Source: Bacteroidales bacterium (GTDB taxonomy: Bacteria; Bacteroidota; Bacteroidia; Bacteroidales; P3). Taken from it: a stretch of 64,000 bases of DNA. Position numbers and translations under genes: made by a program. A model generated the notes under the pieces. It searched no databases, was not told the origin of the DNA, and worked only from the letters and a program-made list of their open reading frames with translations. This document shows positions 9,193-54,218 of this stretch, piece by piece. The stretch covers positions 32,022-96,021 of the forward strand of contig JAFXXI010000009.1 in the NCBI GenBank assembly GCA_017542345.1, in the 5' to 3' direction. Each line of letters opens with the position of its first letter. Position 1 is the first letter of the stretch.

Positions 9193-12100
9193 TCAGCGGA
9201 TGAGGAGCACCGTGCCTTGGAGGGTCTGGTAGACGTTGGGGAAGTAGCGGTCGGCGTAGCGGACGATGTAGATGTAGGCGCCCGCAGGACAAGAATCCCC
9301 ATTGATACTGAGTCCGTTCCAACGGTCAGAGAGGTCGTCGGCCTGGAAGACGAGGATGCCGCGGCGGTCGTAGACACTCATCTCGAAGTGGGCGATATCG
9401 ACACCCTCGGCGCCAAAGGTGCTGTTTTCGGACAGTCCCGGAGTGAAAGCGTTGGGAATGAAGAGCCCGGAGCGTTGCACGGGGATGAGGGCGAGGGCGC
9501 TGTCGGCACAGTGGCCGTCGGAGACGACGAGCATGATGCCCACGGTGTCGGCATGGTCGTCGGCGCGGCCCGTGAGGAGCCAGGAGGTCTCGGGCTGCAG
9601 CACGCCGTCGACATACCAGTAGCGGTAGGGATAGGCGACGGGACTCACGTCACGCGCCTCGAATTCAAGTTGTTCGGCGCTAAGGGTGGAGGGGCCGTAG
9701 CGCATCTCGGCATGGGGTGGCACGAGGGGCTGGAGGGTGACTTCGAGGGAGGCCGGACAGAGGGGGTCGGGGTGGTAGTCGGCATAGAGGTAGTAAGAGG
9801 TGCAACGGCTAGGGGCGACGGTGACAACGCTGTCTTCGACGACACGTTCAAAGAGGCTTCCCTCGATAGGAAGCGTCCATCGGATGTAAGGCACATTGCT
9901 GTGGGCCTCAAGGGTATAGGTGCGCTCGGCGCAGTGCCAGAGGGTGTCGACGGCGAGGGTGACCAGAGGCATCTCGGTGAGGTCGATGGCGAGCACGCTG
10001 TCGCAGCCGTAGAGGGTGTACAGGGTGTCGGCAAGGTGGTGGTCGGTGACGGTGGCCACGGTGCCCGGGGCGGCGCCAGCGGTGTGGTCGCGCCAGCGGT
10101 AGGGTTGGCCTGTGCAGAAGGTGTCGAGTTCAGTGTCGAAGGTGGAGTGGTGGAGAGTGAGGTGGAGGGTGACGGTACTGTCGCAGCCGAAGACGGTGGC
10201 GAAGGTGTGGGTGGGGCCGACGGTGTCGGCAAGGTAGAGACGCCCGTCATACCAGCGCAGGGAGTCGCACCGCTCGATCTGTTCATCGCTGAATGCCAGC
10301 GGCATAACAGCAAGGTCGAGGGTGACGGTGCTGTCGCATCCGCGGAGGGTGGTGTCGGGGTGTATGTAGCGGCCCGATGTGGCCAGGAGGGTGTCGAAGA
10401 AGGGGCGCAGTGAGTCGGCGCAGACGGTGTCGATGTGGTAGGGCTGATAGGATGATAACAGGTTGAGTGCAAGGGTCATGGTGCTGTCGCAGCCATAGCG
10501 GTCGAGGCGGTGGAGGGTAGCGGTGAGGGAGTCGGTGGCCGGTCGCGGCGGGAAGGCCACCGCGGTGTCGAGCCAGGGGTAGGTGCCGGCCGACGAGCAG
10601 ACGGTGTCGGCATAGTGGCGGAGGTAGATGGAATGGACGGTGAGGGGGTGGTGGAGGGTGTCGGGGCAGCCGTTGGTGTCGACGGTGTAGCAGACGGCTA
10701 CGGTGTCGGCCGACGGGCTGACGAGGGCGGGTCCGGAGGCTCCCGAAGACCACTGGTAGGCGACCGCGCCACGGACGCGGAGGGTGTCTGGAATAGCGTT
10801 GATACAACGTTCATTAGGCCCTTGGATGATGGCGGGGGGATAGGGCCGCCGGACACGGATGGTGTGCCGCAGGGTGTCGGTGCACTGGTCGTCGGCGATG
10901 CCGGCAATAAGGGTGACTGGGATGTCGGCCGTGTCGTCGAGGTGGAACTGCAGCGCCTGGGCACTGCTCTCGGCACCGCCGGGCAGGAGCCAGCGCAGGG
11001 TCTCGACGGGCTCGCCGGTGCCCAAGGGGGTGACGCCGTCGCCCGAGATGGTGCTGCGGTTCTGCAGGCGCAGGTCAAACTGACAGTCGGCCACGGTGAG
11101 CACAGTGTCGAAGAGGGCCAGGGGATAGCGGGCGCCGGCGAAGGCGCTCATGGTGAAGTGGCACTGCGGGTTGTCGATGAAGGAGAGGCGGCAGTAGTAG
11201 GTGACGCTGTTGTCGGAGCGCACCCAGAGGCTGGAGGAGTCGGAGACGGTGGCCGTGGTGTCGAGCGAGGAGTACCAGCGGTAGACGAAGCCCGAGGGGA
11301 CGGTGAAGCGGTTGTCGGGCACCACGCTGCAGCCTTCGGTCTGCATGCGTTTGGAGGCGCAACGGAGGGTGAAGTAGGCGTAGCCGAAATGGGAACCCTC
11401 GCCACAGTCGTGGGTGGTAAGTCGCACAAAGACAGTCTGTCCGTCGTAGGGTGTGAGGTCGACGCCGACGGTGGTCCAATCCTTCCACAGCACCTCGCCC
11501 GGGGCCTGGGCCCAGCCCAGGGAGGCGTCGGCAATGAAGTCGGCCATGGCGCAGGAGTCGATGAGCTGACCCTGCTGGTTGAGGATTTCGAGGCGGAAGC
11601 GGGGCTGGTAGGAGGGCGAGTGCTCAGGATCCTGTAGCACAGCAGCATAGCGCAGCACCAGCAAGTCGGCGTCGGCAGCGTCGACGGTGAAGCCATAGGT
11701 GATGCTCTCGGCTTGCGGCTGGGCGTTGCCGCCGGCGGTCCAGTTGCCCAGACGCACAGAGGCATGCTCGCCAGGCGGGATAGTGCGCAGCAGGCCTCCC
11801 GTGCGCGCGTCGCGCTCGGCGGTGTCGATATGCACGGTGTGACGGCTGGCGGCGCTGAGGTAGCCATAGTCGATGCTGCCCTGGTGCTCCATGGGGTTGA
11901 GGTAACTGCCATAGGTACAGGTGACATAGGAGGCGTGGAGGTCGGTGTAGTCGATGCAGCCTTCACCGCCCTGGGGGGTGAAGGTGTAGAAGGTGTCGAC
12001 GTGGGCGGTATGGGGTTGGGCGAAGAGGGTGTCGCAGGCAGCATCGCAGGAGTGGCTGATATAAAAGACATAGTCGGTAAGGGGCGAGAGGCTGTCGACA

Positions 12101-15100
12101 CGGGCCGTGCGCGGTCCGGAGGGGAGGGTGTCGGAGAGGGCGAGGAGGCGCTGTTCGGAGGCCGCTGCCTCGCGCGCGCCATACAATATATATAATATTG
12201 GATTGCCTTGCTGCTGCCATTGGAACTCGACATGGTCGGTCTCCATGGCGGTCATGCGCACATCGTAGGCTGAGCAGGTGGAGAGCAGCAGGTCGTCGAG
12301 GTCGAGCACATCGTCGTCGGCTACACGGAGAGCCAGGAAACGGCCGCCGCCATAGTAATCGGCGAAGGAGTGGAAGCAGCGGGTATAGGTGGAGCGCATA
12401 GAGGTGAAGGAGGCCAGCGAGTCGAAGGTGGAGGGGTCGGAGGCATCGCTCATGGTGCCAAGGGTGAGTTGGTGGTTGTTGCTTTGGCGGAAGCGGGCAC
12501 GGAAGCTTACGGTCAGGCGGCGCAGACTGTCAACGTCGGGCTGCGGCAGGACGAGGTAGGTGGTGCCGTAGTAGTTGCTGACGGTGAGGTGTCCGGATTC
12601 GATATGGGCGTAGTTGGCGGGGCGGTTGACAAGGACACGCCAGCCGGCGAGGTCGCTGTCGAAGGTGCTGCAATAGGGCAGCGAGACCGAAGCGGAGAGG
12701 GTGACCAGCCGCTGCGGCGGACGGGCGGTGCGCTCGGCGGAGTCGCAGCGCAGGTAGAGGTTGTAGGCCGTGTCGGGGTCGAGCACGAGGGTCAAGGGCG
12801 GGGTGCCGACAGGGATGGTGACGCCGCTGCCGAGGGGCGCTCCGGCATGGACATATTCAAGCCAGAAGCCGCTGAAGGTGGTGGGCCAGGAGAGGATGAC
12901 ACGGCCGTTGCCGGGCTGCGACACGGTGAGGCTGTCGGGCAGCGGACAGCGGTCGACGGCGGTGCGCAGCTGCTGGGGCGGCGCACAGGTGGCGGCGCCC
13001 GAATCGCAGAGGAGGTGGAAGTCGTAGAGGGTGTTGTTAGCAAGGATGACGGTGTCGGGGGCCCGGACGGTGGTGCCGCTGCCGAGGGTGAAGCCGGCGG
13101 GACCGTATTCCACGGCACCGCTGCCGCTGACAATGGCGTGGTTGTCGGAGGTGAGGCTGACCGAGGGCAGCTCGCAAGGGAGCACCGTGAGGTCGGCCAG
13201 CTGGGCGTTGCCGCCGTCGGTGGTGCGCAGGGCCACAAAGCGGCCGTCGCCCTGATAGGTGGCGAACGAGACATGGCGGCGCACCCAGGTGCTCACGGGC
13301 GCGTTGACGGTGGCCAGCGGCTCGAAGCTGCTCCAGTCGCCGTCGCGTTGCAGCACGCCCACCTCGACGGGATTGCCGCCGCGGAGGCTGAAGTAGAGGT
13401 GCAGGCGGGAGACGCTGTCGACGGAGAACTCGGGCAGGACGAGGGTGGCGACGGTGTCGCTCGTGCGGCAGTAGGGCAGGTCCTCCTCGGTGGGCATGGT
13501 GACGGCGAGGGGTGCAAGGCAAGTGGGGGTGGCATTATGGCGGCAGTAGAGCCAGTAGCTGGCACCGGGGGTGAGGTTCTCGAGGCGGAAGAGGGTGTCG
13601 GTGACGTGGCGCACCGTGCCCTGTCCCTGGAGGAAGCCCACGGGACCATATTCTATATAGTAATTGGTATCAGCGTTTTGAAGCTCGATGCGGCGCGCCG
13701 AGAGGACAGCCACCGAGGGGGTGAGACCGTGGGTGACGGCGAGGGTGTCGATGAGGAGCTCGGCCGTCTGAACGGTGGCTTCGCAGGCGAGGGCCAGGCG
13801 GGCGCCGGCGGTGAAGCGCGTAAGGGGTAGCCTCAGAGTGTGCCAGCGGTTGCTGACGGAGGGCACGAGGGTGTCGCGCGGCTGGAAGCTGTTGGGGTTG
13901 GCGTCGAGGCCTATCTGACCCACCACCAGACGGGCGCGGTTGTGGTTGGGGGTGCGCAGGCTGAGGGTGAGCTGGTGCGCGGCGAGGCTGTCGGCAGCCA
14001 GCAGCGGCAGCACCACGATGCTGCGGTTGCCCGCGGCGGCACGGAGCTGCATAGCCTGGGTGCCGCCCGAGGTGGTGAGGGCCGGGGTATTGCTATAGGT
14101 GCGGCTGACCGCCCACTGGTAGGGCATGCCCGCCTCGGGGGCGTCGTCGAAATTCTCGCAGTAGGGCGTGGACATGGCGCTGCCGAAGGAGAACATCAGG
14201 CGCTGGCAACTGTTGTCTGTGAGGCTGATGGGTTTGAGGTAGAGGTCGTAGTTGCTGCCTTCCACCACGCCCGGCACCGCGAAGGTGGTGAGGGGTGCGT
14301 CGACGGTGTCGGCGGTGCCTGTGCCGGGCTCGAAGCCCGCGGGGCCGTATTCCACCGCCACACGGCTGACATCGTGCCAGGTGCGCCAGGTGGCCACCCC
14401 TGCGGAGGTGACGGCGACATTGCCGATGGCATAGCGCGCCACGCTCAGGTCGTCCATGAAGAAGGTGCCTGCCGCAGCGGCGGCGCGCATCACGATGTAG
14501 CGGCCGGTGCCTACATAGGCGGAGAGGTCGGCCACACGGTGCTGCCACACGCCGAGCTGCGTGAGGCGCAGGGTGTCGAGTGGCACGAAGGTGTGGAGCG
14601 AGTCGGGGTCGTCCATGACGCCCACCACGAAAGCATCCTGGGCCATCAGCGCCTCGGAGGCTCCGTAGAGCCAGAGGCTGACGGTCAGCTGCTCGACAGA
14701 GCCCATCGGGGGCAAGACCACCTGCTGGCCGCCGGTGAACTGGCCCGCATGACTGCCGCCGTGATAGTTGCGATCGGTGGTCACCACACCGCGGCAATAG
14801 GAAGGTGTGCGGCCTGTGGGGAGACTCTCAAAGTTGACACAGTAAGGGATGGAAGCTGAGGGCGGTGAGGTGTATTTGCTGGTATTCACCCGCTGGATTC
14901 TGTTGTCGGAAGGGCCGTAGCCCGCATAGTAGGCGGCACCGGTGTCGCCGCAACTGCAGGTCGCCAGAAGGGTGATGATGTAGTTCGCCCCCGGGACAAG
15001 ACCATCAATAACGGCCGGCGAATGAGTAATCGTGCCTGTAAGCAGTTCGCCGCCACCCGTCAACGTGTAGTGCAACGTCAGGCTGTCGTCGCTCTGCCAA

Positions 15101-17805
15101 GTGAGGGTGATGCTGGTGCTGTCGGCAGCGGCGAGACGTACATTTTTGGCCGCGCAGGTGTTCAAAGCGAGGTTCTCCACGAAGACCTGGGCCGCCGCCG
15201 CGTCGGTCTGCAGCATCAGGGCCAGATGCCCCTGCACCGAGTCGACATGGAGGTGGTAGGGCAGCCACGTTTCGGCGCTGGTAAAGAGGACGGTATCAAC
15301 CGGGGTGAAGGTGGCGAGGTCGGACACATCGCCGAGGAAGCCCAGGACAAGGCGCGTAGCGCCCAGTCCCTGCGTGAGGTTGGCATAGAAGGAGATGCTG
15401 CGGCCGGGGGCGCACGAGAGGGCGTCGGGCAGCACGGCCACCGTGGGGGCGCCGGCACCGGCGGCAAACTGCAACGAGCGGCCTCCCGTGAGGTTTCTCA
15501 CCGTGCTGACGATGGGATACTCGCCGTAGGTGGAGAGGCGGCGCCAGTTGGGCGGATAGCCGCTGACGGGCACCGTGTTGAACGACTGGCAATAGGGCAT
15601 CGTCACCGGACCGTCGAGGGTGGTGAACCACAGCGAGCGGTAGTGGCAGCCGTCGCCCTCGAGGGGGCTGACATGGACACAATAGGGGGTGCCGGAGGCG
15701 AGGTTGGCGAGGACGACCGCCGTGTCGGAGACGAGGGAGGTGCCGTGGCCCGGGGTGAAGTCGACACCCTCGGTGGCCACGGGGGCATACTCGATGTGCA
15801 CGCTGTCGCCACGCTGCAGCAGCCAGTCGATGCGGGCCGACACAGCGCTGATGGCGCCCACCGACGCCTGCAAGAGGCGTGCGTTGCGCAGTGCCAAAGC
15901 ATCGACATTCCATCCGCCCACGGCCCGCAAAGCGAGGCAACTGCCGGCCGTGGAGGCCAGCGCCACGCTGTAGCGACTCCACACGCCGGTGCCCGCCAGC
16001 GTGTCGGTGGGAACGAAGGGATCGTAGGGACTGCTCTGGCGGCCCACTATCAGTGAGCCGGTGCCGATGGCGTAGAATTCCAGAAAGACGGTATCGGGCG
16101 CGGCATCGCCCATGAGGGGCATGGTGGCCACGGCGCCGTTGGCCAGCGACAAGGCGCGGGAGCCCTCGCTGGCGTTGGTGCCCACAGTGACGCCCGCGGT
16201 GCCGACCCATCCCTGCGGAAGGGCGCCGCCCTCCTCAAAGCCAGTGCAATAGGGCGGAAGCACCTCGTGGGCGAAGGTGCGAAAACGGTGGCGGTCGCAG
16301 TCGGCCGGGAGGTCGCCGCAGGTGGGCCAGAGGTAGAGGTCGTATTCGGTATCGGCCGAGAGGTCGTGCAGGGCGAGGCGTGTGCCGTCGAAGTGAATGG
16401 TGGCGGTGTTGACGGGACCTGTCAGCACAAAGCGGGAGCCGCTGCCGGGGGTGAAGCCCGCAGGGCCGTATTCAAGCTGCACGGCGCCGCTGTCGGCCAG
16501 GTAGAGGGTATCCCACTCGACGGTGACTCCCTCCTCGGTGATGTTGTAGAGCCGCGCGTTGTCGAGCAGGCAGTGGGCCAGGCGTAGGTTGTCGACGGTC
16601 AGGATCCCGTTGCCCAGCGCCAGCAGCGCTGGATAGCGGTAAGTGCCTGTGTAAGGCGCCAACGACAGCAACTGCGGCGATGACGAGGGCAGCAGCGTGT
16701 CAATAGGGGTGAAGCCCTCGGGCTCGCCGGCAAACTCCATGGCTCCCACCACCAGCCGCACGTCGCCGCTGCCGCCGAGCGACAGCGCGAGGGTGAGCTC
16801 GCCCAGGCGTGACGAATGGTAGGAGGAATGGGTGTCGGCACAGACAGGTGCCGGCAGGACGGCCAGGCAACTGTCGCCCGTGGCGGGCATCATGCGCAGC
16901 ACGCCGGAAGCCGTCTGCGGACGATTGGGCAGCGGGGTGCGCCAGCGTGGCGGCAACTGCCCTCCGGCGAGGGAGAAGGTCTCATTGTAGGCGGGCACCA
17001 TGCCGACACGCTCGAGGGTGCGCACCGTCACCTCCTCGCGGTGGCCGTCGGTGCAGCCCACGCTGAAGGTGTAGTCGGTCTCGGGCTCGAGGCCGGTAAT
17101 GACTAGCGGACTCTGTGCCGGGCTGATGACGGTCTGGCCGTAGCGCACATCGACAATGCCCATGCCGAAGACGTCGAAATGCAGCGTCAGCCGGTCGCTG
17201 CCGAGGTGGGAGACCCATGGCACCGAGGTGCCGCAGCTCTCGATACTGACGTCGTCGATGTGCATCTCGCTGCCGTCGGGCTGCAGGCTGCGACGCATGC
17301 AGAACGCCAGGCGCCGCCCGTTGCCAGTGTAGGACGAGAGGTCGATGGCAAATTCCTGCCACGTCGAGCCGCGGTCGACATGGAGCGTGTCAATCGGCTC
17401 GAAGGCACGGGTGTATCGGTTGGTGTCGGCGCAGAAACCCACCAACAGGCGGGCCGACGTGGAAGGCGAACGAAGACGGAATCGGAGGTAGAGCCCCTCG
17501 AGCGAGGAGAGGCCGGCCAGCGGCGGGACGATGACCATGCTGTAGTGGCTCTCGGCCAAAGTGCCGGGATAGAGCACCAGCGAGGCGGTGCCGCTGTAGT
17601 GCTGCAGGGCGTCGACGTGGGGCGGATAGCCCATGTCGTAGTTGCGGGTGGCAAACCAGCACGGAGGCATCACCTCGGAGCCGGCGCCGTAGGTGTCGAA
17701 CGCCTCACGCAACGGCACGGTGAGCGAGTCGCAGGGCGTCTGTGCCGACAGCCGCAAGGCCAGCACGAATGCTGCCGCAAGAGCTATAATCCGCCTTAAA
17801 CGCAT
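9193..17805 (-). CDS. Giant modular cell-surface protein with T9SS type-B (gliding-motility-associated) C-terminal sorting domain
   Basis: 2870-aa ORF with signal peptide MRLRRIIALAAAFVLALRLSAQ. About eight modules start with ..PYCxxF.. and alternate with Fn3-like EYGPAGFxPGxG segments. There are four GCDS[TV]xxLxL Cys repeats. The C-terminus IPNAFTPG..FEMSVYDRRGILVF..RWNG..CPAGAYIYIVRY..GTVLLIR fits the type-B CTD pattern. Confidence 0.9.
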   Translation of the reverse strand: MRLRRIIALAAAFVLALRLSAQTPCDSLTVPLREAFDTYGAGSEVMPPCWFATRNYDMGYPPHVDALQHYSGTASLVLYPGTLAESHYSMVIVPPLAGLSSLEGLYLRFRLRSPSTSARLLVGFCADTNRYTRAFEPIDTLHVDRGSTWQEFAIDLSSYTGNGRRLAFCMRRSLQPDGSEMHIDDVSIESCGTSVPWVSHLGSDRLTLHFDVFGMGIVDVRYGQTVISPAQSPLVITGLEPETDYTFSVGCTDGHREEVTVRTLERVGMVPAYNETFSLAGGQLPPRWRTPLPNRPQTASGVLRMMPATGDSCLAVLPAPVCADTHSSYHSSRLGELTLALSLGGSGDVRLVVGAMEFAGEPEGFTPIDTLLPSSSPQLLSLAPYTGTYRYPALLALGNGILTVDNLRLAHCLLDNARLYNITEEGVTVEWDTLYLADSGAVQLEYGPAGFTPGSGSRFVLTGPVNTATIHFDGTRLALHDLSADTEYDLYLWPTCGDLPADCDRHRFRTFAHEVLPPYCTGFEEGGALPQGWVGTAGVTVGTNASEGSRALSLANGAVATMPLMGDAAPDTVFLEFYAIGTGSLIVGRQSSPYDPFVPTDTLAGTGVWSRYSVALASTAGSCLALRAVGGWNVDALALRNARLLQASVGAISAVSARIDWLLQRGDSVHIEYAPVATEGVDFTPGHGTSLVSDTAVVLANLASGTPYCVHVSPLEGDGCHYRSLWFTTLDGPVTMPYCQSFNTVPVSGYPPNWRRLSTYGEYPIVSTVRNLTGGRSLQFAAGAGAPTVAVLPDALSCAPGRSISFYANLTQGLGATRLVLGFLGDVSDLATFTPVDTVLFTSAETWLPYHLHVDSVQGHLALMLQTDAAAAQVFVENLALNTCAAKNVRLAAADSTSITLTWQSDDSLTLHYTLTGGGELLTGTITHSPAVIDGLVPGANYIITLLATCSCGDTGAAYYAGYGPSDNRIQRVNTSKYTSPPSASIPYCVNFESLPTGRTPSYCRGVVTTDRNYHGGSHAGQFTGGQQVVLPPMGSVEQLTVSLWLYGASEALMAQDAFVVGVMDDPDSLHTFVPLDTLRLTQLGVWQHRVADLSAYVGTGRYIVMRAAAAAGTFFMDDLSVARYAIGNVAVTSAGVATWRTWHDVSRVAVEYGPAGFEPGTGTADTVDAPLTTFAVPGVVEGSNYDLYLKPISLTDNSCQRLMFSFGSAMSTPYCENFDDAPEAGMPYQWAVSRTYSNTPALTTSGGTQAMQLRAAAGNRSIVVLPLLAADSLAAHQLTLSLRTPNHNRARLVVGQIGLDANPNSFQPRDTLVPSVSNRWHTLRLPLTRFTAGARLALACEATVQTAELLIDTLAVTHGLTPSVAVLSARRIELQNADTNYYIEYGPVGFLQGQGTVRHVTDTLFRLENLTPGASYWLYCRHNATPTCLAPLAVTMPTEEDLPYCRTSDTVATLVLPEFSVDSVSRLHLYFSLRGGNPVEVGVLQRDGDWSSFEPLATVNAPVSTWVRRHVSFATYQGDGRFVALRTTDGGNAQLADLTVLPCELPSVSLTSDNHAIVSGSGAVEYGPAGFTLGSGTTVRAPDTVILANNTLYDFHLLCDSGAATCAPPQQLRTAVDRCPLPDSLTVSQPGNGRVILSWPTTFSGFWLEYVHAGAPLGSGVTIPVGTPPLTLVLDPDTAYNLYLRCDSAERTARPPQRLVTLSASVSLPYCSTFDSDLAGWRVLVNRPANYAHIESGHLTVSNYYGTTYLVLPQPDVDSLRRLTVSFRARFRQSNNHQLTLGTMSDASDPSTFDSLASFTSMRSTYTRCFHSFADYYGGGRFLALRVADDDVLDLDDLLLSTCSAYDVRMTAMETDHVEFQWQQQGNPILYILYGAREAAASEQRLLALSDTLPSGPRTARVDSLSPLTDYVFYISHSCDAACDTLFAQPHTAHVDTFYTFTPQGGEGCIDYTDLHASYVTCTYGSYLNPMEHQGSIDYGYLSAASRHTVHIDTAERDARTGGLLRTIPPGEHASVRLGNWTAGGNAQPQAESITYGFTVDAADADLLVLRYAAVLQDPEHSPSYQPRFRLEILNQQGQLIDSCAMADFIADASLGWAQAPGEVLWKDWTTVGVDLTPYDGQTVFVRLTTHDCGEGSHFGYAYFTLRCASKRMQTEGCSVVPDNRFTVPSGFVYRWYSSLDTTATVSDSSSLWVRSDNSVTYYCRLSFIDNPQCHFTMSAFAGARYPLALFDTVLTVADCQFDLRLQNRSTISGDGVTPLGTGEPVETLRWLLPGGAESSAQALQFHLDDTADIPVTLIAGIADDQCTDTLRHTIRVRRPYPPAIIQGPNERCINAIPDTLRVRGAVAYQWSSGASGPALVSPSADTVAVCYTVDTNGCPDTLHHPLTVHSIYLRHYADTVCSSAGTYPWLDTAVAFPPRPATDSLTATLHRLDRYGCDSTMTLALNLLSSYQPYHIDTVCADSLRPFFDTLLATSGRYIHPDTTLRGCDSTVTLDLAVMPLAFSDEQIERCDSLRWYDGRLYLADTVGPTHTFATVFGCDSTVTLHLTLHHSTFDTELDTFCTGQPYRWRDHTAGAAPGTVATVTDHHLADTLYTLYGCDSVLAIDLTEMPLVTLAVDTLWHCAERTYTLEAHSNVPYIRWTLPIEGSLFERVVEDSVVTVAPSRCTSYYLYADYHPDPLCPASLEVTLQPLVPPHAEMRYGPSTLSAEQLEFEARDVSPVAYPYRYWYVDGVLQPETSWLLTGRADDHADTVGIMLVVSDGHCADSALALIPVQRSGLFIPNAFTPGLSENSTFGAEGVDIAHFEMSVYDRRGILVFQADDLSDRWNGLSINGDSCPAGAYIYIVRYADRYFPNVYQTLQGTVLLIR

Positions 17806-46850: not shown

Positions 46851-46881
46851 AGCCCGATACCCATGAGGTGTCGGGCTTTTT
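46851..46881. terminator. Bidirectional terminator shared by rpsU (+) and the six-gene operon (-)
   Basis: AGCCCGATAC-ccatgag-GTGTCGGGCT is a 10-bp stem with one G-U pair. It is followed by TTTTT on plus and TTTCTTGTT on minus. Confidence 0.75.
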
Positions 46882-46901
46882 GCATTGGTTAGCACCTTGG
46901 T

Positions 46902-47876
46902 TTATTGGTACTTCTGGGCCACTTCGTTGATGCTGAAGTTGCCCTGCATGTCTTGGACGGCAACGGTGCCACGGAGGATGCCGAAGAAGAACTCGCGCAA
47001 GCGGTCGAACGAAAGTACGGCGGTCTTGCCGTCTTTGTCGGGACCGAGGTCGTAGGTCTTCAGCAGCTGCGGGCCAAGAGCGGCAGCGGCAAGCAAGAAG
47101 TGGTTCTGGAACTTGTCAGTGTCGATAAGGTCGGCAGCAAGCACCTTACCCACAATGGTGTAGCTGCGCAGGGTCTTCTGCATTTCCTCGCTGGTGAGGG
47201 TGGTACGCACCTCATCGGCGTCGACATCGAGCACCACACGACCCGATTCGGGAGCTTGCGGCATGCCTTTGTAGAGCGAACCGAGGTCGGCAAGGCTGAG
47301 GTTGTAGAACTTGGCGCCGGTGGCCACGACCATCTTCTCGATGGAGAAGGCCGAGGGGAGCAGCAGCTGGACAGTGCCGTCGATGCTCACAGTGGGCGTG
47401 TTGAAGGTGCCCACGATGCAGTTGTTCATCTCAATGCCCTGGGTGGCGAAGACACCGCCAATCACCACGCAATTGTCGAGCACCACCTCGTCGGCATAGA
47501 TGCTGCCGGCTACGAAGGCGTTGTAGAGCGTGACGCTCTTGGCGTTGATGTCGCTCTGGAAGGTGAGCTGGCAACCCGAGGCCCGGGAGGCGATGGTGTC
47601 GACCGAGCCAACGCTCTTACGGAACACGATATTGCCCTTGGCATCAGCGTTGACGTAGAGTTCGAGCTGTGTGAACACGGCGCCGCGCAGTTCACAGTCA
47701 CCGTTCTGGATTTCAAGACGATGGGCATAGACAGCCCCTTCGATGACGGTATCTTCCTGGATGGTTATGTCGCGGGTCAACTCGCTCACCTGCTCGGGGA
47801 TGATGGAGCCTTTGACCAGATTGTCCTTCAGCAGAACGTTGCTGCCGTTGAAACGTATTTCATTCAATTCTTTCAT
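46902..47876 (-). CDS. Operon gene 6: hypothetical protein, N-terminal bactofilin-like beta-helix, C-terminal unknown domain
   Basis: 324 aa with no TM. Residues ~35-190 show a repetitive short-strand pattern (..TVIEGAVYAHRLEIQNGDCELRGAVFTQLELYV..VTLYNAFVAGSIYADEVVLDNCVVIGGVFATQGIEMNNCIVG..) reminiscent of polymer-forming bactofilins. Composition is normal, unlike the antisense ORF 46905-48098. Confidence 0.8.
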   Translation of the reverse strand: MKELNEIRFNGSNVLLKDNLVKGSIIPEQVSELTRDITIQEDTVIEGAVYAHRLEIQNGDCELRGAVFTQLELYVNADAKGNIVFRKSVGSVDTIASRASGCQLTFQSDINAKSVTLYNAFVAGSIYADEVVLDNCVVIGGVFATQGIEMNNCIVGTFNTPTVSIDGTVQLLLPSAFSIEKMVVATGAKFYNLSLADLGSLYKGMPQAPESGRVVLDVDADEVRTTLTSEEMQKTLRSYTIVGKVLAADLIDTDKFQNHFLLAAAALGPQLLKTYDLGPDKDGKTAVLSFDRLREFFFGILRGTVAVQDMQGNFSINEVAQKYQ

Positions 47877-47891
47877 GACTTGGATAATTTG

Positions 47892-48890
47892 CTAATTGTT
47901 AAACAAACGGATGATTTGTTCGCGGACACGCTCGCCGTGCTTGTCGGAACCCACAGCCGTGGAGACCTCCTCGTTGAAGTAGCGGCGGATGGCGCCCATG
48001 TCCTCTTCGGTGGGTCTGGGCCACTGTTGTTTACGCAATCCCTCTCCGATTTGATCCTTGTTGGAAGCCAGTTGCTCGGGGCTGTAGATGTTGCGTGAGA
48101 CGCTTCCGTGGCTGTCGGCAGCCTCCATGTAGCAGACCGGCAGGAAGAGGTAGCCCTCGCTGTTGCTGTCGATGATGCTCGAGGTGATGGTATCGGCAGT
48201 GTGCTTCTGCACTTGCAGGAAACGAGTGGCCTTGCCCAGAGTGTCGTTGGCGCGTTGCTTGGTCAGCGTGGCGCTGAGCTGTGCTCCCAGACGGGCGTTT
48301 TCGCCGCCCGAAATGGAGACAGTGGGCACCATGTCGCTCTCGACCAGACGGCTGTTGAGCTTGTCGGCGTCAGACCGGAACATGAAAGTGGGCTGGTCAA
48401 GATTGCGGATGCGGTTCTCCAGTTCGCGGTCGAGGTCGGAGAAGATTTTGAGGTACTGCTCGCACTTGCGGTTGTAGTCCACCTCCATCTGACGTTTCAT
48501 GTCGTTGCAACGACGGGCGTCGCTCTGCAGTTTCAGCAGGGTAGCTTCGACATTGTTCTTCAGCTCGTTGATTTGCTGGCTAATTTCGCTGCGCACGGTC
48601 TTGAAGAAGCCGTCGATGAGGGTCTTTCCGACCTTGCGGGAATTCTCCTTGATGGAAGCCACTTGGGCCGCCTCTGTGGCAGCAACGGAGCCTGTCAGCA
48701 GGTCTACCTGGCCTCCACAGTGGTGGGTGGATGCGTCGAAGGGTGTGGTGTCGACATTGACATTCACCACGACATCCTCGTAGGCTGTGCCGCTATAGGA
48801 GACTGAGCCACCATGCTCTGAGGCGGGGTAGCTAACCGAGCCCGAGTAGTGTACCGATATAGTTTTCCTTACTTGTCTTGTGTAACTCAT
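47892..48890 (-). CDS. Operon gene 5: hypothetical protein, paralogue of gene 4
   Basis: 332 aa. It is collinear with the 305-aa neighbour (..SEISQQINELKNN..QMEVDYNRKCEQYLKIFSDLDRELENRIRNLDQPTFMF..LPVCYME..). It has an extra N-terminal GSVSY-rich segment. Confidence 0.82.
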   Translation of the reverse strand: MSYTRQVRKTISVHYSGSVSYPASEHGGSVSYSGTAYEDVVVNVNVDTTPFDASTHHCGGQVDLLTGSVAATEAAQVASIKENSRKVGKTLIDGFFKTVRSEISQQINELKNNVEATLLKLQSDARRCNDMKRQMEVDYNRKCEQYLKIFSDLDRELENRIRNLDQPTFMFRSDADKLNSRLVESDMVPTVSISGGENARLGAQLSATLTKQRANDTLGKATRFLQVQKHTADTITSSIIDSNSEGYLFLPVCYMEAADSHGSVSRNIYSPEQLASNKDQIGEGLRKQQWPRPTEEDMGAIRRYFNEEVSTAVGSDKHGERVREQIIRLFNN

Positions 48891-48898
48891 AACGCCTC

Positions 48899-49816
48899 CT
48901 ATTGTTTAAGGGTTTGATATGAGGCGGCACGGAAAAGGTTGTTCATCATCTCCTTGACGCGATCGGGAAGGTTGGCAGAGGCCACCATCTTGCCATATTC
49001 GTTGATAGTCTCGCGGTCCTTGTCCGTAGTGTCGACCCAAGGAAGGTTGTCCTCCGTCGAGGTGATGGTGTTCTGGATGCTACGCTGCATCGAGGCACTC
49101 AAGCCCGTGTCATTCATCACAATGTTCTCCACGGTGGTTCCGTTGCGGTCGATGCAGGTCTCCATCATCACCACCGGCACGGCAAGGTGCGACTCACGGG
49201 CCTCGCCGCTGAGCAGGATGGTGGACGTCAGCCGACGTTGGTCGTTGAAGTCGGACAGGAAGTCGCGCATGGTGTTGATGACCTTCATGCCCTGGTATTT
49301 GGCATTAGAGGCCAGTATCTGCTGACTCTGCATAACCGACTCGAGCTGCCCGACCGGCACCGTGGCGGTGAGCAGTTTGCTGCGGTTGGTGATATGCTCA
49401 ACCTCGCCGAGGGCGAAGTTCATCGTGGGACGGTCAAGTTCCGCAACACGCTGCTTGAGGTTCTGGTTGAGACCAGTGAACAACTTGCTGTAACGTGCAA
49501 GGAGCATGTTGTAGTCACGCTCCATACGGGTGCGGATGCCGAGCAACTGCTTCTGCTGCTGAGCCAACTGCATGAGCAATGAGTCGACATCACTCTGCAA
49601 TTTGGCCATTTTCTGTGATATCTGCGAGCGAATCATGGTGTAGAAACCCTGATTTACTTTCTCACACACATGGTCGGAAGCTTCTTTCTCGGCAGCGATG
49701 ACGGCAGTCTTCATGGCGACCACTGCCGTGGTTGTGGCGGTTACATGGTGCGACACCTTGTCTATCTCATGCGCCATGGGCTTGGTGTCGACAACACAAT
49801 CTATATATGATGCCAT
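48899..49816 (-). CDS. Operon gene 4: hypothetical protein, paralogue of gene 5
   Basis: 305 aa with ..SQISQKMAKLQSD..RMERDYNMLLARYSKLFTGLNQNLKQRVAELDRPTMNF..VPVVMME.. No family recognised. Confidence 0.82.
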   Translation of the reverse strand: MASYIDCVVDTKPMAHEIDKVSHHVTATTTAVVAMKTAVIAAEKEASDHVCEKVNQGFYTMIRSQISQKMAKLQSDVDSLLMQLAQQQKQLLGIRTRMERDYNMLLARYSKLFTGLNQNLKQRVAELDRPTMNFALGEVEHITNRSKLLTATVPVGQLESVMQSQQILASNAKYQGMKVINTMRDFLSDFNDQRRLTSTILLSGEARESHLAVPVVMMETCIDRNGTTVENIVMNDTGLSASMQRSIQNTITSTEDNLPWVDTTDKDRETINEYGKMVASANLPDRVKEMMNNLFRAASYQTLKQ

Positions 49817-49835
49817 AATGAGCCGAATTTAGGGG

Positions 49836-51908
49836 TTACTGATTGTTTTCTTCCTCGTTGTCACCTTCTTCCTCGCCTTCGCCCTCTTCTTCATCGTCGT
49901 CACTTTCTTCCTCTTCTTCGTCGATTTCCTCTTCCTCCGAAGGCTCCTCTACCTCTTGGGGCTCTTCCTCTTCAAGGACGACCTCTTCCTCTATTTCCTC
50001 AGGCATCTCCTCCGGCACTTCCTCTTCCATCACGGGTTCCGGGGCTTTTGCCTGTTCGGCACCGCTCTCCAAGTCCTTCAGCGCCTTCTCGGCAATGGAG
50101 GGCAGGTCAAGGTTGAGGTATTCGAAGGTGATGTCATCCACATTGGGCGTGGGCGGCATATCAGCCTGCTTGGCAAGGAGCGGGTTCGCAGCGGCCAGCG
50201 GTTTGCGGCGGCTGTCGAGATGATTGACCTCGCCCGCTGCCACGGCTTCTTCGCTCGAATGGCCATCACGCAGTTTGGCGTCATAGTACTCCACATGGCC
50301 GAACTTCTCACCTTTCAGGCGAATGTCATCCTGCAGGCGGTCCATATAGTCCTCAAACTGGTTCTGCACCTGTTTGAACTGCTGCGACTGGGTCTCAAAG
50401 GCAACGGCGGTCTCGGCCACATTGTCACTGCTTTCAACCAGGGTGGAGTCGAGCTGGCCCTCGCTCTTAGCCATATTGGCTTCCGTGTGCTGCAGGGAGA
50501 CAAGCGTATTGTATGCCGCGGTGTACTCGCGCAAGCTCTCCTGCATGGCGGCAATAATCTTGTTGGCTTCGGAACGGTTATCGCGGTAGAACGCGTCAGT
50601 ATCCTGATTCCACTTGTTTAGATAGCTTATCTTCTGGTCCTTGATATGGTTATATATCTTCAAGCGCTCAATACGGGTCTCACGCATGAGGTTCTGTACC
50701 ACCGGGGCCACAATTTCCTCATAGAGCTGGTGTACACCGAAAGGCACCGTGGTGGTGCTGCCGTCCTCTGCAGTCCACATCCCTGTCACCAGGTTATAGC
50801 GCACACGGGAACTTTCCTTGAGCTGGAAGGGAGTATAACCCTGCACATCCTCCGAGAAGTCGAACTTCTCATTACGGATTCTTTCAATCTCATCATGCTC
50901 CAGAAGCGGAGAATAGTGGTTATAGGGGGCTTTCAGTATCTGATAGAGCAACTTGTTCGACTCAAATATCACTTTGTCGGCCGATGCGACCTTCAGGTTC
51001 GAGATAGCCTGCACCGAATGAGCCATGGTCACCATCAACTTCTTCAGCACATCCTCGAATTGCTCCGTCTTGCTCGACAGCGAGTCTTTCAGCCTGTTCA
51101 ACTCCTGGAACTTATTGATACTGGCGGCGTAGCGGCTCTTGTCGAAGACCTCCACGACAGGGGCCTCCTGCGGCACATCGCCTGTAGCATATTCGTCAAG
51201 GAACTCATGGTACTCACTCTTGTCCGCCACCAACGGGAGGCTCACGCTCGACACATCGAGGTCCTCCATGCAGTAGCCGATGGTGCGAAGCGAACGCTCC
51301 ATCTTGCCGAAGTAGTCGTGCTGGGTAACCTGCTGTATCGAGGTGGAATACTCGTCCGTATCCAGCGCTTCGGAGTCTTCCGAGCTCTCCACCACAGGGG
51401 CTCCTTTCGAGAGTTCCTCGATGTCTCCTATGGTGGACACCAGAAGGTCGTTCTGACGCGACATCTGCAGCGTCACCTCCGACTCGCCCACTGTCCCGGT
51501 ATAGTCCACGATAAAGCTCTTGTCTTCATACTTTATCTGGTCAGCCACCGGCACATAGGCCACACCTAACTTATTTACCTTATAGTCGCGGAAGATTTCC
51601 TTATGCTGCTTCTTAAACTCTTCTATCCTTACCGTGATATCATCAATCTCTTTCTGCAGTTGATTCTTCTTCACGAAATACAAGATAATTGGAATCAGCA
51701 GTATCGCCAATGGCAGCAGCCAAGGAATCCACAGCTTCGACTGCTGGGCAATCTTCTCTTCTTTCTCTCGTTCGAGCTTGGCAATCTCGCCTTCAATGCG
51801 CTCTTCTTCGCCAACAATCTTCTCGGCGGCCTGGCGGTAGTAGTTGAACAACACTCTCGCCTGGTCCTGGTAGATGTTGACCGACTCGGGGAATATCTTT
51901 CCTGTCAT
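49836..51908 (-). CDS. Operon gene 3: single-pass membrane, coiled-coil protein with 67-aa polyacidic C-terminal tail
   Basis: 690 aa. The TM helix is LWIPWLLPLAILLIPIILYF (aa 59-78), flanked by E/K-rich coiled-coil segments. The tail is EPVMEEEVPEEMPEEIEEE...EEGDNEEENNQ (49839-50039). Confidence 0.82.
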   Translation of the reverse strand: MTGKIFPESVNIYQDQARVLFNYYRQAAEKIVGEEERIEGEIAKLEREKEEKIAQQSKLWIPWLLPLAILLIPIILYFVKKNQLQKEIDDITVRIEEFKKQHKEIFRDYKVNKLGVAYVPVADQIKYEDKSFIVDYTGTVGESEVTLQMSRQNDLLVSTIGDIEELSKGAPVVESSEDSEALDTDEYSTSIQQVTQHDYFGKMERSLRTIGYCMEDLDVSSVSLPLVADKSEYHEFLDEYATGDVPQEAPVVEVFDKSRYAASINKFQELNRLKDSLSSKTEQFEDVLKKLMVTMAHSVQAISNLKVASADKVIFESNKLLYQILKAPYNHYSPLLEHDEIERIRNEKFDFSEDVQGYTPFQLKESSRVRYNLVTGMWTAEDGSTTTVPFGVHQLYEEIVAPVVQNLMRETRIERLKIYNHIKDQKISYLNKWNQDTDAFYRDNRSEANKIIAAMQESLREYTAAYNTLVSLQHTEANMAKSEGQLDSTLVESSDNVAETAVAFETQSQQFKQVQNQFEDYMDRLQDDIRLKGEKFGHVEYYDAKLRDGHSSEEAVAAGEVNHLDSRRKPLAAANPLLAKQADMPPTPNVDDITFEYLNLDLPSIAEKALKDLESGAEQAKAPEPVMEEEVPEEMPEEIEEEVVLEEEEPQEVEEPSEEEEIDEEEEESDDDEEEGEGEEEGDNEEENNQ

Positions 51909-51949
51909 GGTAAATAAGTTTTGGTGAATATTATTAATGAACTAATCTT

Positions 51950-52639
51950 TCAGTTTGAGTATTGCGTCCGACGGCGCTGCAACAGGCGTTCACACCGTGC
52001 CAGTACCTGTTCAGCCTGCTCGGCATTCATGCGATAGTCGCCCACCATGCGCCCAATCTCAACCGCACCTTCCACCAACTGGCGGTCGGTGTCCAGTGCC
52101 TCGGGGTTGTTTGTCGGCGAAAGATAGCGCATGTCCTGCACCATGGTATTGGTACGATCACGCAATGCTACCGGGAAGTCGGGCTGAAGGTCCATCTTCT
52201 CCAGCAGGTCGCGCCATGCATTCTTCACGCTGTCGCGATTTCCCACCTTCTGCTGCTCCTCTTTGTGCACACCCACAATCTGTTCCCGCGTACGAAGTGC
52301 CGCAGCCAAACCCAGTAGCAACAGCACGAGAATGCCGCCCTGCACGAGCAGCTGCACGCTGAACTCTTGGTTCCGCAATGCAATCATAAGTCCCACCGCA
52401 AGGATAGCGTAGATGAACGTAATCGTCCATCGCACACCCATCGCGCCCAACTTGGCCGTGTGTTCGTCGCCCCACGGGCGGGTAATATCCACAAAGAATA
52501 GTCCGATGATGATGGTGCACACCACCATGTCCAGAATCATCACCTCAGTCGGCATATCACCCCTGTACAGGAGGAAGGCTGCAATCATAATAGCCTCGCA
52601 TATTGCCAAGGCCACCCAAGACAAAAACTTGCGTATCAT
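51950..52639 (-). CDS. Operon gene 2: four-TM membrane protein with ~110-aa helical cytoplasmic tail
   Basis: 229 aa with four hydrophobic helices in aa 5-115, then a charged helical region ..VHKEEQQKVGNRDSVKNAWRDLLEKM.. Confidence 0.8.
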   Translation of the reverse strand: MIRKFLSWVALAICEAIMIAAFLLYRGDMPTEVMILDMVVCTIIIGLFFVDITRPWGDEHTAKLGAMGVRWTITFIYAILAVGLMIALRNQEFSVQLLVQGGILVLLLLGLAAALRTREQIVGVHKEEQQKVGNRDSVKNAWRDLLEKMDLQPDFPVALRDRTNTMVQDMRYLSPTNNPEALDTDRQLVEGAVEIGRMVGDYRMNAEQAEQVLARCERLLQRRRTQYSN

Positions 52640-52664
52640 ATCTCTTCGTTTTTATGGTTTACAC

Positions 52665-53954
52665 TTATCTCTTATTACCACACTTCGGGCAGAACTTGAC
52701 CGACGGCGGAAGCACGGCACCGCAACGCGAGCATACATCGCCCGACTGTGTCGGTTTGCCGCAACTGCTGCAGAACGACGCACCCGCGGGTATCGGAGCG
52801 TTGCAATGCGGGCAGCGACTCTCCGACGCCTGTAGTTGGGCACCACACCCCGTGCAACGACGGGCTTTCTCGTCGTTGTCGCGGCCGCAGTTGGGGCACG
52901 GATTATACTTATGTCCACAGCTAGGGCAGAACTGCGAGGTAGTCAGGAACTGTTTGCCGCAGTTGCTGCAGAACACCGCTGCCGGACGTGGCATGCCACC
53001 ACCTCCCTGCGGGGCCGCGCCCATCCCTTGCTGCTGTTGGCCTCCTGGGCCGAACGTCGGGTGGTCGTTATTGGGCGACATCAGCGGCTGACCCATGCTG
53101 CCGCCACCCATATTGCCACCGAAACCGCCCATCATGCCGATGGCCATCAAACCGCCCAGGATACCGCCCTGGCCGTTGCCCATGCTGTTGACCGCACCCT
53201 GCGCAGTGCTGAACATCTGCTCCTGCTGCCAGGTGTGGCCCGTGATGTGCATCGAACTCTGCTGGGCAATAGCTTCCTTGACCCTGCGGCCCTCTTCCGT
53301 CGTGGTGTCTATATCAATTTCGGTAATATAGAAATGCGCCAGCTCTATGCCAAACTGCGCCCAGAATGCGGCGATATTGCTCTTCAGATAGGTAGAGATC
53401 TGGTCCAGATGGCCCGAAATCGACTTATACCCGATTTGGTTACTGGTCATGTACTGCACAATGGCCGATTTGGTCTTGGTGATGAACTCTCCCAAGCACT
53501 GGTCGGTGACATCATCGCGCGAGAACTGATGGCGCGGCACCACGAGGTTGATGAGGAACTTCTCCGCATCCACCACCTTGATGCCATAGCGGCCTTTGGC
53601 CACCAACGGCAGCTGCGTCTGGTAGTCGGCGTCGTGGATTGACATGCTGCCCGTCGCCCATTCCAGATTGGCAGGCTGCAGCAGGTTGACATACCACACT
53701 TCCGCCGTGAAGGGGTTCTTTCCGCCAAACGGGATGCCGAACAGCGACCGAAGTATCGGCAGGTTCTCTGTATTGAGCGTGTGCTTGCCCGGACCGAACT
53801 TGCCCAACAGCTGTCCCTTCGAGAACAGCAGCGCCTGCTGCGACTCATACACCACCAACTGGGTATAGGTACTCAAGTTTGTTTCCGGGAAACGATAGGC
53901 GTAAAGCATCTTCCCATCGTCGGGGGACCATCTAACTAAATCAATTATTGCCAT
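52665..53954 (-). CDS. Operon gene 1: SPFH/band-7 protein of the YdjI (COG4260, 'virion core protein-like') type with Gly/Met/Gln-rich linker and four C-terminal zinc ribbons
   Basis: 429 aa. The N-terminal ~250 aa follow the YdjI-like pattern (..QLVVYESQQALLFSKGQLLGKFGPGKHTLNTENLPIL..FGGKNPFTAEVWYVN..). There are eight CxxC pairs arranged as four ribbons (aa 328-427). Confidence 0.85.
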   Translation of the reverse strand: MAIIDLVRWSPDDGKMLYAYRFPETNLSTYTQLVVYESQQALLFSKGQLLGKFGPGKHTLNTENLPILRSLFGIPFGGKNPFTAEVWYVNLLQPANLEWATGSMSIHDADYQTQLPLVAKGRYGIKVVDAEKFLINLVVPRHQFSRDDVTDQCLGEFITKTKSAIVQYMTSNQIGYKSISGHLDQISTYLKSNIAAFWAQFGIELAHFYITEIDIDTTTEEGRRVKEAIAQQSSMHITGHTWQQEQMFSTAQGAVNSMGNGQGGILGGLMAIGMMGGFGGNMGGGSMGQPLMSPNNDHPTFGPGGQQQQGMGAAPQGGGGMPRPAAVFCSNCGKQFLTTSQFCPSCGHKYNPCPNCGRDNDEKARRCTGCGAQLQASESRCPHCNAPIPAGASFCSSCGKPTQSGDVCSRCGAVLPPSVKFCPKCGNKR

Positions 53955-53962
53955 ATCTATTT

Positions 53963-54010
53963 AATTTATTGTTACTTATTCATTGTAATTTATTGTTACT
54001 TATTCATTGT
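53963..54010. repeat. Perfect 24-bp tandem duplication in the operon leader
   Basis: AATTTATTGTTACTTATTCATTGT occurs at 53963-53986 and again at 53987-54010. It lies between the -7 box and the start codon at 53954. Confidence 0.9.
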
Positions 54011-54024
54011 AAGAATTGGAAATG

Positions 54025-54056
54025 CAAAGGTATGAAGAAACAATCACTTTTGCAAA
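54025..54056 (-). promoter_or_regulatory. Bacteroidetes-type promoter of the six-gene operon (-33 TTTG / -7 TACCTTTG)
   Basis: Minus strand: TTTG (54053-54056), then a 20-nt spacer, then TACCTTTG (54025-54032). Confidence 0.6.
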
Positions 54057-54218
54057 TATTTTTTTTGCCATCCCCAGAACAAACAACACAACACACTAAT
54101 CCACAACATAATATCCTGTAAAATTTAACATTCAGGACACCTGGCCTATAGATACAAAACAAAAGGTTCGGGAAACATGCAGTCTCCCGAACCTCACTTT
54201 TTCTGTTTATTTGCTCAA

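Follow-up and report, generated by a model that had tools for sequence, protein, structure and literature searches.

What does a bacterial operon do when only one of its six products belongs to a known protein family? We addressed this question for six genes, named g1 to g6 in their order, in a 64-kb stretch of DNA from a Bacteroidales bacterium (hereafter the window). The first gene encodes an SPFH protein. SPFH proteins are found throughout life, and to our knowledge their partners in bacteria have been described for few types, namely FtsH, NfeD, and PspA. We found that the six genes formed one operon, kept together across bacterial phyla as an accessory unit of two modules. The operon appears to be new as a system, because comparison with known systems placed it in none of them, a rating that rests on the absence of detectable counterparts. 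As for its function, we propose, with somewhat less than an even chance of being right, a PspA-independent sub-membrane scaffold in which a membrane-docked SPFH adaptor organises a lattice of membrane-anchored g3, g4/g5, and g6.

Six genes on the minus strand form one operon

All six open reading frames (ORFs) were located on the minus strand and were separated by 25, 41, 19, 8, and 15 nt in order from g1 to g6. An initial annotation of this DNA had given the ORFs, their coordinates, and the gaps exactly so. The features of the locus, numbered from the first letter of the window, are the following.

46856 to 54217, minus strand: the whole 7.4-kb block, an indel between rpsU and a PTR2 transporter gene (BLASTN versus collinear relatives)
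54025 to 54056, minus strand: Bacteroidetes-type promoter, TTTG-N20-TACCTTTG (-33/-7 motifs; exact pattern match)
53962 to 54012, minus strand: 5' untranslated leader in which 24 nt are perfectly duplicated in tandem (Tandem Repeats Finder)
52665 to 53954, minus strand: g1, 429 aa, soluble SPFH protein of Band_7_1 (YdjI) type, carrying a linker rich in Gly and Met and, C-terminally, four zinc ribbons (Pfam)
51950 to 52639, minus strand: g2, 229 aa, membrane protein of four helices whose cytoplasmic tail is helical (hydropathy, alignment)
49836 to 51908, minus strand: g3, 690 aa, membrane-anchored protein with a variable polyacidic tail (hydropathy, alignments)
48899 to 49816, minus strand: g4, 305 aa, soluble paralogue of g5 with a long helix (hhalign; low-confidence AlphaFold2 model)
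47892 to 48890, minus strand: g5, 332 aa, paralogue of g4, N-terminally longer by a segment of about 40 aa (BLASTP, hhalign)
46902 to 47876, minus strand: g6, 324 aa, soluble protein with a weakly bactofilin-like N-terminal half and a conserved C-terminal domain (weak Pfam and PDB profile matches)
46851 to 46881, no strand assigned: hairpin terminator common to g6 and the convergent rpsU (fold)

The promoter named in the initial annotation was present, and its motif was enriched, with 4 matches in the window versus 0.31 expected; the remaining matches were likewise 5' of genes. The terminator hairpin, described there as strong, had a folding energy of -23.1 kcal/mol (z = -3.94), and none of 200 shuffled sequences was equally stable. 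Upstream, the gene for the PTR2-type transporter had its own terminator at 54163-54195. The promoter together with the terminators on the 5' (PTR2) and 3' (46851-46881) sides thus delimited the unit at both ends. The repeat in the leader, which separates the promoter from the g1 start codon, comprised 2.1 copies of TAATTTATTGTTACTTATTCATTG (plus strand) with 100% matches and a score of 102; the leader and its surroundings gave zero Rfam matches to cis-regulatory RNAs. The GC content of the block was 0.51-0.56, versus 0.53-0.60 in the adjoining 2-kb bins. The short gaps, the single promoter, the flanking terminators, and the conserved synteny described below bore out the earlier suggestion of a single transcription unit, and the six genes are one operon.

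The gene order is conserved across phyla

In strong support of the earlier grouping of the six genes, g2-g6 accompanied g1 far beyond the window. One genome per species was scanned, with g4 as the anchor, yielding 74 loci whose ORFs were surveyed by phmmer (loci are numbered with L and proteins with P below). In 55/74 of these loci g1-g6 followed each other in order on one strand, and nearly all others were cut by contig ends. A metagenome scan anchored on g1 gave the same picture, as 42 of the 43 loci offering 6.5 kb or more of downstream sequence carried g2-g6. The order was kept in about 100 loci from at least four phyla, including Bacteroidota, Ignavibacteriota, Treponemataceae, and a metagenome-assembled genome (MAG) of Oscillospiraceae, the last assignment being this one MAG contig (L086), which begins inside g3. 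The most divergent full-length relatives of g3 (L081, L082/L083, L084, and L085) were again found in the six-gene arrangement, as were distant orthologues from a g6 search (L087, a Treponemataceae contig, and L088). Identity to the window in L081-L088 was 40-47% for g1, 35-43% for g3, 24-35% for g4, 26-39% for g5, and 38-49% for g6, and the median across Bacteroidota was 68% for g3 and 66% for g6. Named relatives of g6 included Treponema, Termitinemataceae, and Deferribacteraceae. Apart from three labels given by annotation pipelines ('cytoskeletal protein C...', 'predicted DNA-binding protein', and 'ABC-type multidrug transport system...'), homologues that bore a name were all called 'hypothetical protein'.

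Across 58-81 loci, the median gaps were 23, 20.5, 12, 2, and 14 nt, and the identities of the six proteins co-varied (Spearman rho 0.38-0.81). There was no conserved flank or seventh gene, and no flanking family was common to more than 6/74 loci. The conserved order with unshared flanks indicates that the six genes are a self-contained unit. One could still regard them as chance or historical neighbors, g1-g2 being an ordinary SPFH pair and g3-g6 unrelated to it, and the two modules can indeed occur separately. However, an order kept at 24-49% identity across phyla, with unshared flanks, short gaps, and co-varying identities, effectively refutes this explanation and leaves it next to no probability.

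Two MAGs carried the cluster twice. In JAFVBC01 (L010, L011) it was present on two contigs with all six phmmer E-values identical between them, and JAKPTX01 (L013, L019) had two differing copies, one of which was near that of Bacteroidales bacterium CF (L014) in E-values. These double copies could reflect real duplication, strain mixture, or binning contamination.

The block is an indel at a variable spot

The initial annotation considered the operon native rather than mobile and saw no integrase or transposase nearby. The latter observation was correct, as neither adjoins the block within the window. To the former, relatives of the host gave a different answer. We compared relatives with an identical S21 protein and collinear flanks (rpoBC, DUF3467, ACPS, Sua5, and PTR2; rpsU, rpmB, ssb, and pgi). 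The site was empty in L089, L091, and L095-L098, where rpsU was directly convergent with PTR2, with about 100 nt and one shared terminator between them. Other cargo occupied it elsewhere: a C10 peptidase tagged for the type IX secretion system (L090, L094), flavodoxin, glyoxalase, aldo-keto reductase, and AraC genes (L092), and a 167-aa ORF (L093). BLASTN against the empty-site loci L089, L091, L096, and L098 (73-91% nucleotide identity) ended at 46855 and resumed at 54218, and this break in homology between collinear relatives identifies the 7.4-kb block as an indel at a variable spot. With empty or differently filled sites in collinear relatives, unrelated contexts elsewhere, and a patchy distribution across phyla, the view of a native operon could not be maintained. 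Within the species, 13/13 contigs with an identical PTR2 protein carried the block, so strain-level turnover was not seen.

Phage or plasmid cargo was also considered and rejected. Relatives of g3 or g6 were absent from the viral-contig collection, relatives of g6 from phage records, and relatives of g3 from plasmid records, and no integrase or transposase adjoined the block. Among the 127 nearest neighbors of the cluster, 2 were integrases.

A self-contained cassette in unrelated genomic contexts, spread patchily over several phyla and forming an indel at a site that other genomes fill with different cargo, is also what would be expected of an anti-phage or abortive-infection system. In this main alternative, g2 and/or g3 would collapse the membrane, and the soluble proteins would sense infection, for example as a membrane perturbation or a phage protein. 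Defence systems often use multi-helix membrane effectors, and some copies of the block adjoin restriction-modification, DRT-type reverse transcriptase, MkoA-like, and WYL/large-helicase genes. On the other hand, none of the six proteins matched a PADLOC component, the best hit among 5027 models being a coiled-coil stretch of LeoBC at E 0.0078, and all six gave zero matches to catalytic families (NTPase, nuclease, protease, or other), nor was there a TIR or sirtuin-type domain. The 127 nearest neighbors, from 43 loci and taken with no background control, were heterogeneous and mostly ordinary genes. Defence-model matches were a scattered minority, mostly one protein each (among them a type I methyltransferase, a type II restriction enzyme, and DRT, MkoA, and GajB-like proteins), and several were generic GTPases or helicases. 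The flanks in the window are housekeeping genes, the block is present in every same-species contig, its conservation is high rather than diversifying, and it is absent from the phage, plasmid, and viral-contig collections. Kiwa and Zorya-like membrane defence cassettes resemble it in being accessory, horizontally spread, self-contained, and equipped with multi-helix membrane proteins, but it has no sequence relation to any PADLOC model, lacks a motor or nuclease, and is not consistently found in defence islands. We regard an immune function as unlikely.

Two observations on the neighbors are added here. Pfam Dynamin_N had matches to two proteins of the neighbor set, as did PADLOC LeoBC. In the Treponemataceae contig L087 (7001-16648), the genes after the cluster encode a SEC-C protein, a regulator of the WYL/WCX type, a DEAD-box helicase of 1715 aa, and an SNF2 helicase, giving this neighborhood a defence-island-like look.

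The operon consists of two modules

The SPFH protein had been placed at the center of the operon. This was not borne out, since the g3-g6 core occurred without g1-g2 in L012, L058, L062, L063, L065, and L075, all with room upstream for the missing genes. Conversely, g1-g2 stood alone in L116 and were followed by unrelated genes on the opposite strand. The operon therefore consists of two modules, g1-g2, which is usually attached, and a g3-g6 core, which is able to stand alone. In some lineages, zinc ribbons like those of g1 were fused to other proteins of the cluster, either C-terminally to g6 after an acidic linker (P0453, P0457) or N-terminally to g3 (P0259), which is no more than a hint that zinc ribbons may connect the two modules.

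Further zinc-ribbon genes were noted around some copies. In a Rikenellaceae MAG (L034, 13322-16052), a second, different SPFH set lies directly downstream of the cluster, made up of two zinc-ribbon proteins and a Band_7_1 protein that bears a SHOCT domain. A DZR zinc-ribbon gene is situated two genes downstream of g6 in L085, and in L086 there is a Zn_ribbon_3 gene within about 4 kb.

g1 is a YdjI-type SPFH protein and g2 its putative membrane partner

The initial annotation recognised g1 as an SPFH protein of the YdjI type with four zinc ribbons, and profile searches agreed. g1 matched PF13421 (Band_7_1) with an E-value of 2.6e-33 and 115.9 bits, well above the gathering score of 24, over profile positions 2-209 of 211, and the same family is recorded for its orthologues. 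It also has the other traits of Band_7_1/YdjI-like proteins, being soluble with a region of low complexity and a C-terminal zinc ribbon. The four ribbons comprise 8 CxxC motifs with DZR/Zn_Ribbon_1 matches (DZR E 3.2e-26), and the cysteines of ribbons 1, 2, and 4 were invariant in 24 orthologues. A phmmer search of g1 against PDB returned zinc-ribbon noise only. There is no hydrophobic helix in g1. The G/M/Q-rich linker at residues 236-325 keeps its character in orthologues down to 42% identity. In the window (52980-53250, residues about 236-325) it includes a Gly/Met/Leu-rich stretch, GGLLGGLMAxxMMGGxGG, that resembles a glycine zipper and, being retained in orthologues down to the same identity, is more than a spacer.

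The second protein was confirmed by hydropathy as a four-helix membrane protein with a helical tail, which bears an RYxSP motif and a C-terminal RK. The hydrophobic helices of the operon are confined to g2, with four, and g3, with one; the other four proteins have none. At position 2 of distant loci we again found a protein with about four membrane helices, mostly with a recognisable RYxSP-like motif, in a family too divergent for a pattern scan. g2 had zero matches in Pfam, NCBIfam, PADLOC, and PHROGs, and zero Pfam matches to NfeD at E <= 1.

The closest known system is the pspA-ydjGHI (samGHI) operon of B. subtilis. YdjI is a soluble protein with a low-complexity stretch and a C-terminal zinc ribbon (PMC8581546, PMC11237479). 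It needs membrane proteins and recruits the polymer PspA to the membrane (PMC8581546, PMC11237479, bioRxiv 10.64898/2026.02.06.704340). Of its partners, YdjG is a zinc-ribbon/NTF2-like membrane protein and YdjH a TPM-domain membrane protein (PMC11237479). g1 is of the same subfamily type, with the same solubility, low-complexity stretch, and C-terminal ribbon, and its gene likewise shares an operon with a membrane protein. Fused zinc ribbons had been presented as what sets g1 apart from B. subtilis YdjI, but YdjI itself carries one (PMC8581546, PMC11237479). The real differences lie in the rest of the operon, which has no PspA/IM30 gene, no TPM-domain YdjH, and no YdjG-type protein, has an unrelated four-helix protein as g2, and includes g3-g6, which are without counterpart and can occur without the SPFH gene. 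The lack of PspA seen in the initial annotation held for the operon in Pfam and library searches, which gave zero PspA_IM30 matches among the six proteins; the rest of the genome, outside the 64-kb window, may encode one. By analogy with YdjI, because it needs the membrane proteins YdjG and YdjH, we infer that g2 is the membrane partner on which g1 docks.

SPFH-NfeD pairs and their kin (QmcA-YbbJ, flotillin-YqiJ/YuaF, HflK/C-FtsH) offer a second comparison. As in these, an SPFH gene stands beside a gene for a multi-helix membrane partner, and g1-g2 are kept or lost together. Classical SPFH proteins have a long coiled-coil cage wall after the SPFH domain. g1, in contrast, has no membrane anchor and carries the Gly/Met-rich linker and zinc ribbons after that domain, g2 has no NfeD match, and no protease is linked.

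Full-text searching found no description of this six-gene cluster in the literature. Five of the six proteins had been thought to lack a recognisable family. This holds for g2-g5, which matched nothing, while g6 had the sub-threshold bactofilin matches described below; neither PspA, TelA, nor a catalogued defence family explained g2-g6 in profile searches.

g3 is a conserved membrane-anchored protein

g3 begins with an N-terminal helix, followed by its one hydrophobic helix (61-79), by a body of about 530 aa that is conserved and mostly helical, and by a polyacidic tail (621-690) with 42 D/E in the last 70 residues. The single membrane helix and the polyacidic tail of the initial annotation were thus retained. 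Its description as a generic coiled-coil protein was not, since alignments showed about 600 strongly conserved residues with many invariant positions; the acidic tail was variable in length and sometimes absent. In Ignavibacteria, a two-helix hairpin replaces the one helix, which would place both ends of g3 on the same, presumably cytoplasmic, side.

We found 2510 homologues of g3, which without exception were named 'hypothetical'. An exhaustive profile search of 1.84 billion representatives gave 351 hits, which were of the family itself and mostly fragments. Pfam, NCBIfam, PADLOC, and PHROGs yielded zero matches, a profile search of PDB sequences yielded nothing, and a Pfam scan of individual family members yielded nothing consistent; neither g3 nor g2 matched TPM_phosphatase or related families. 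Kinship of g3 with g4/g5 was rejected by comparison. The AlphaFold2 model of g3 had a predicted local distance difference test score (pLDDT) of 46, with all input homologues at least 64% identical to the query.

The tail ends in different ways: with no further element (window), a short helical motif (many Bacteroidales), DUF2007 (Ignavibacteria), or an L7/L12 C-terminal domain (two distant lineages). The short Bacteroidales motif reads LxxILDxLxLEYD..FDR. The L7/L12 domain follows a long Pro/acidic linker in L081 (9846-12425; P0398/P0258) and L082 (8001-10331; P0245), with Pfam E-values of 1.3e-17 and 2.1e-6, and such an end hints that the tether might recruit a further client.

g4 and g5 are paralogues with probable translational coupling

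That g4 and g5 are diverged paralogues, as first annotated, was evident both from BLASTP (27% identity, E 2e-23) and from hhalign between the two families (probability 100%, E 3.8e-40). Their genes had a median gap of 2 nt and overlapped in 30/77 loci, which suggests translational coupling, on which basis the two proteins probably form a hetero-oligomer. g4 had 793 homologues. Neither protein matched Pfam, NCBIfam, PADLOC, PHROGs, or PDB sequences in profile searches. The AlphaFold2 model of g4 showed a long helix at low confidence (pLDDT 62, predicted template modelling score 0.25), and Foldseek of this model found no match (best E 0.46). The models of g3 and g4 were unusable because the input alignments were too shallow and too similar.

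A PspA-like nature of g4/g5 was tried and rejected. The g4 family and E. coli PspA aligned with an hhalign probability of 0.2%, a weak negative that adds to those from Pfam.

g6 is weakly bactofilin-like

The N-terminal half of g6 had been read as a bactofilin-type beta-helix. Weak matches recurred: g6 itself matched Pfam Bactofilin (PF04519) with an E-value of 3.3e-4 and 21.3 bits, below the cut-off of 27.9, and 15/22 orthologues had sub-threshold matches (E <= 0.01; best E 2.8e-5). Searched with the g6-family profile, PDB sequences gave Bactofilin A (2n3d) as the sole match at E 0.19, and hhalign of g6 versus a Bactofilin A fragment gave a probability of 12%. Since these matches are sub-threshold, we call the N-terminal half bactofilin-like and not bactofilin. 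This half is repetitive, and the N-terminus, MKELKEIRFN, and a C-terminal domain of about 150 aa are conserved. Compared with bactofilins (BacA/CcmA), g6 thus shares a repetitive half that weakly but consistently matches their beta-helix, and differs in its length of 324 aa, its N-terminus, and its large extra C-terminal domain.

Such a protein could belong to a positioning apparatus, in which a g6 polymer anchored by g3 and g4/g5 localises cell-wall, division, or polarity factors and the SPFH module acts as a membrane-domain cue. The recurrent bactofilin signals agree with this, as do the label 'cytoskeletal protein C...' given by the Joint Genome Institute (JGI) to one distant g6 orthologue, the non-enzymatic, conserved components, and the housekeeping-type promoter. 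However, no locus links the block to a peptidoglycan enzyme, a ParA-like ATPase, or a division gene, and g6 falls short of the Pfam threshold with its different N-terminus and extra domain. Close relatives that share the cell plan also lack the block, so it cannot be a core morphogenetic system. A role in positioning is in our judgement improbable.

Proposed function

No catalytic matches, strong conservation, and carriage by 13/13 same-species contigs suggest, as far as can be judged from sequences, a structural rather than an enzymatic assembly. The scaffold proposed at the outset would involve the following physical interactions, polymerisation by g6, and role in the cell. Soluble g1 would dock on the membrane protein g2 (module A), and g3 would serve as a membrane anchor with a flexible acidic tether (module B). 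The long-helix pair g4/g5 would be a hetero-oligomer within the lattice, and g6 might polymerise via its beta-helix-like half in the manner of bactofilins. The g1-g2 adaptor would concentrate or stabilise the g3/g4-g5/g6 lattice at defined membrane patches. The outcome would be a scaffold, independent of PspA and situated at the cytoplasmic face of the inner membrane, for membrane maintenance or stress response.

Several points weigh against this scaffold. As the g3-g6 core exists without the SPFH module, the SPFH protein may be an accessory and not the organiser. No relation of g2 to YdjG, YdjH, or NfeD could be detected, and the bactofilin similarity of g6 is under every curated threshold. 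The AlphaFold models of g4 (pLDDT 62) and g3 (pLDDT 46) are too poor for a test of fold. The promoter is an ordinary housekeeping-type Bacteroidetes promoter without sign of stress regulation. Finally, the patchy multi-phylum spread, the variable context, and the indel status would fit an accessory conflict system equally well.

In a bolder form, which we hold to be possible but doubtful, the operon would encode an unrecognised sub-membrane machine. A polymeric lattice of g3, g4/g5, and bactofilin-like g6 would be positioned by the SPFH/zinc-ribbon adaptor and its four-helix receptor, and would organise or repair membranes independently of ESCRT-III and PspA, being traded horizontally among gut, rumen, termite, and oral anaerobes. 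The remaining probability belongs to functions not named here.

Whether the function is structural or immune, the operon defines four new protein families, with hundreds to thousands of homologues that curated libraries, solved structures, and searchable papers do not cover. Scaffolding or repair would mean that bacteria have membrane-organising machinery of a new class, perhaps along with a new polymer, and immunity would mean a system built entirely from non-enzymatic proteins. Cultivable carriers include Capnocytophaga sputigena NCTC11653 and Dysgonomonas termitidis.

Other features of the window

Two giant ORFs, both on the minus strand, were found elsewhere in the window. The ORF at 9193-17805 encodes 2870 aa, which include fn3 repeats plus a type IX secretion signal of the CHU_C kind, and lies in a region with a GC content of 64-67% and a strong GC skew (0.28). 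The ORF at 4646-8878 encodes 1410 aa with Fn3_assoc/CHB_HEX_C domains.

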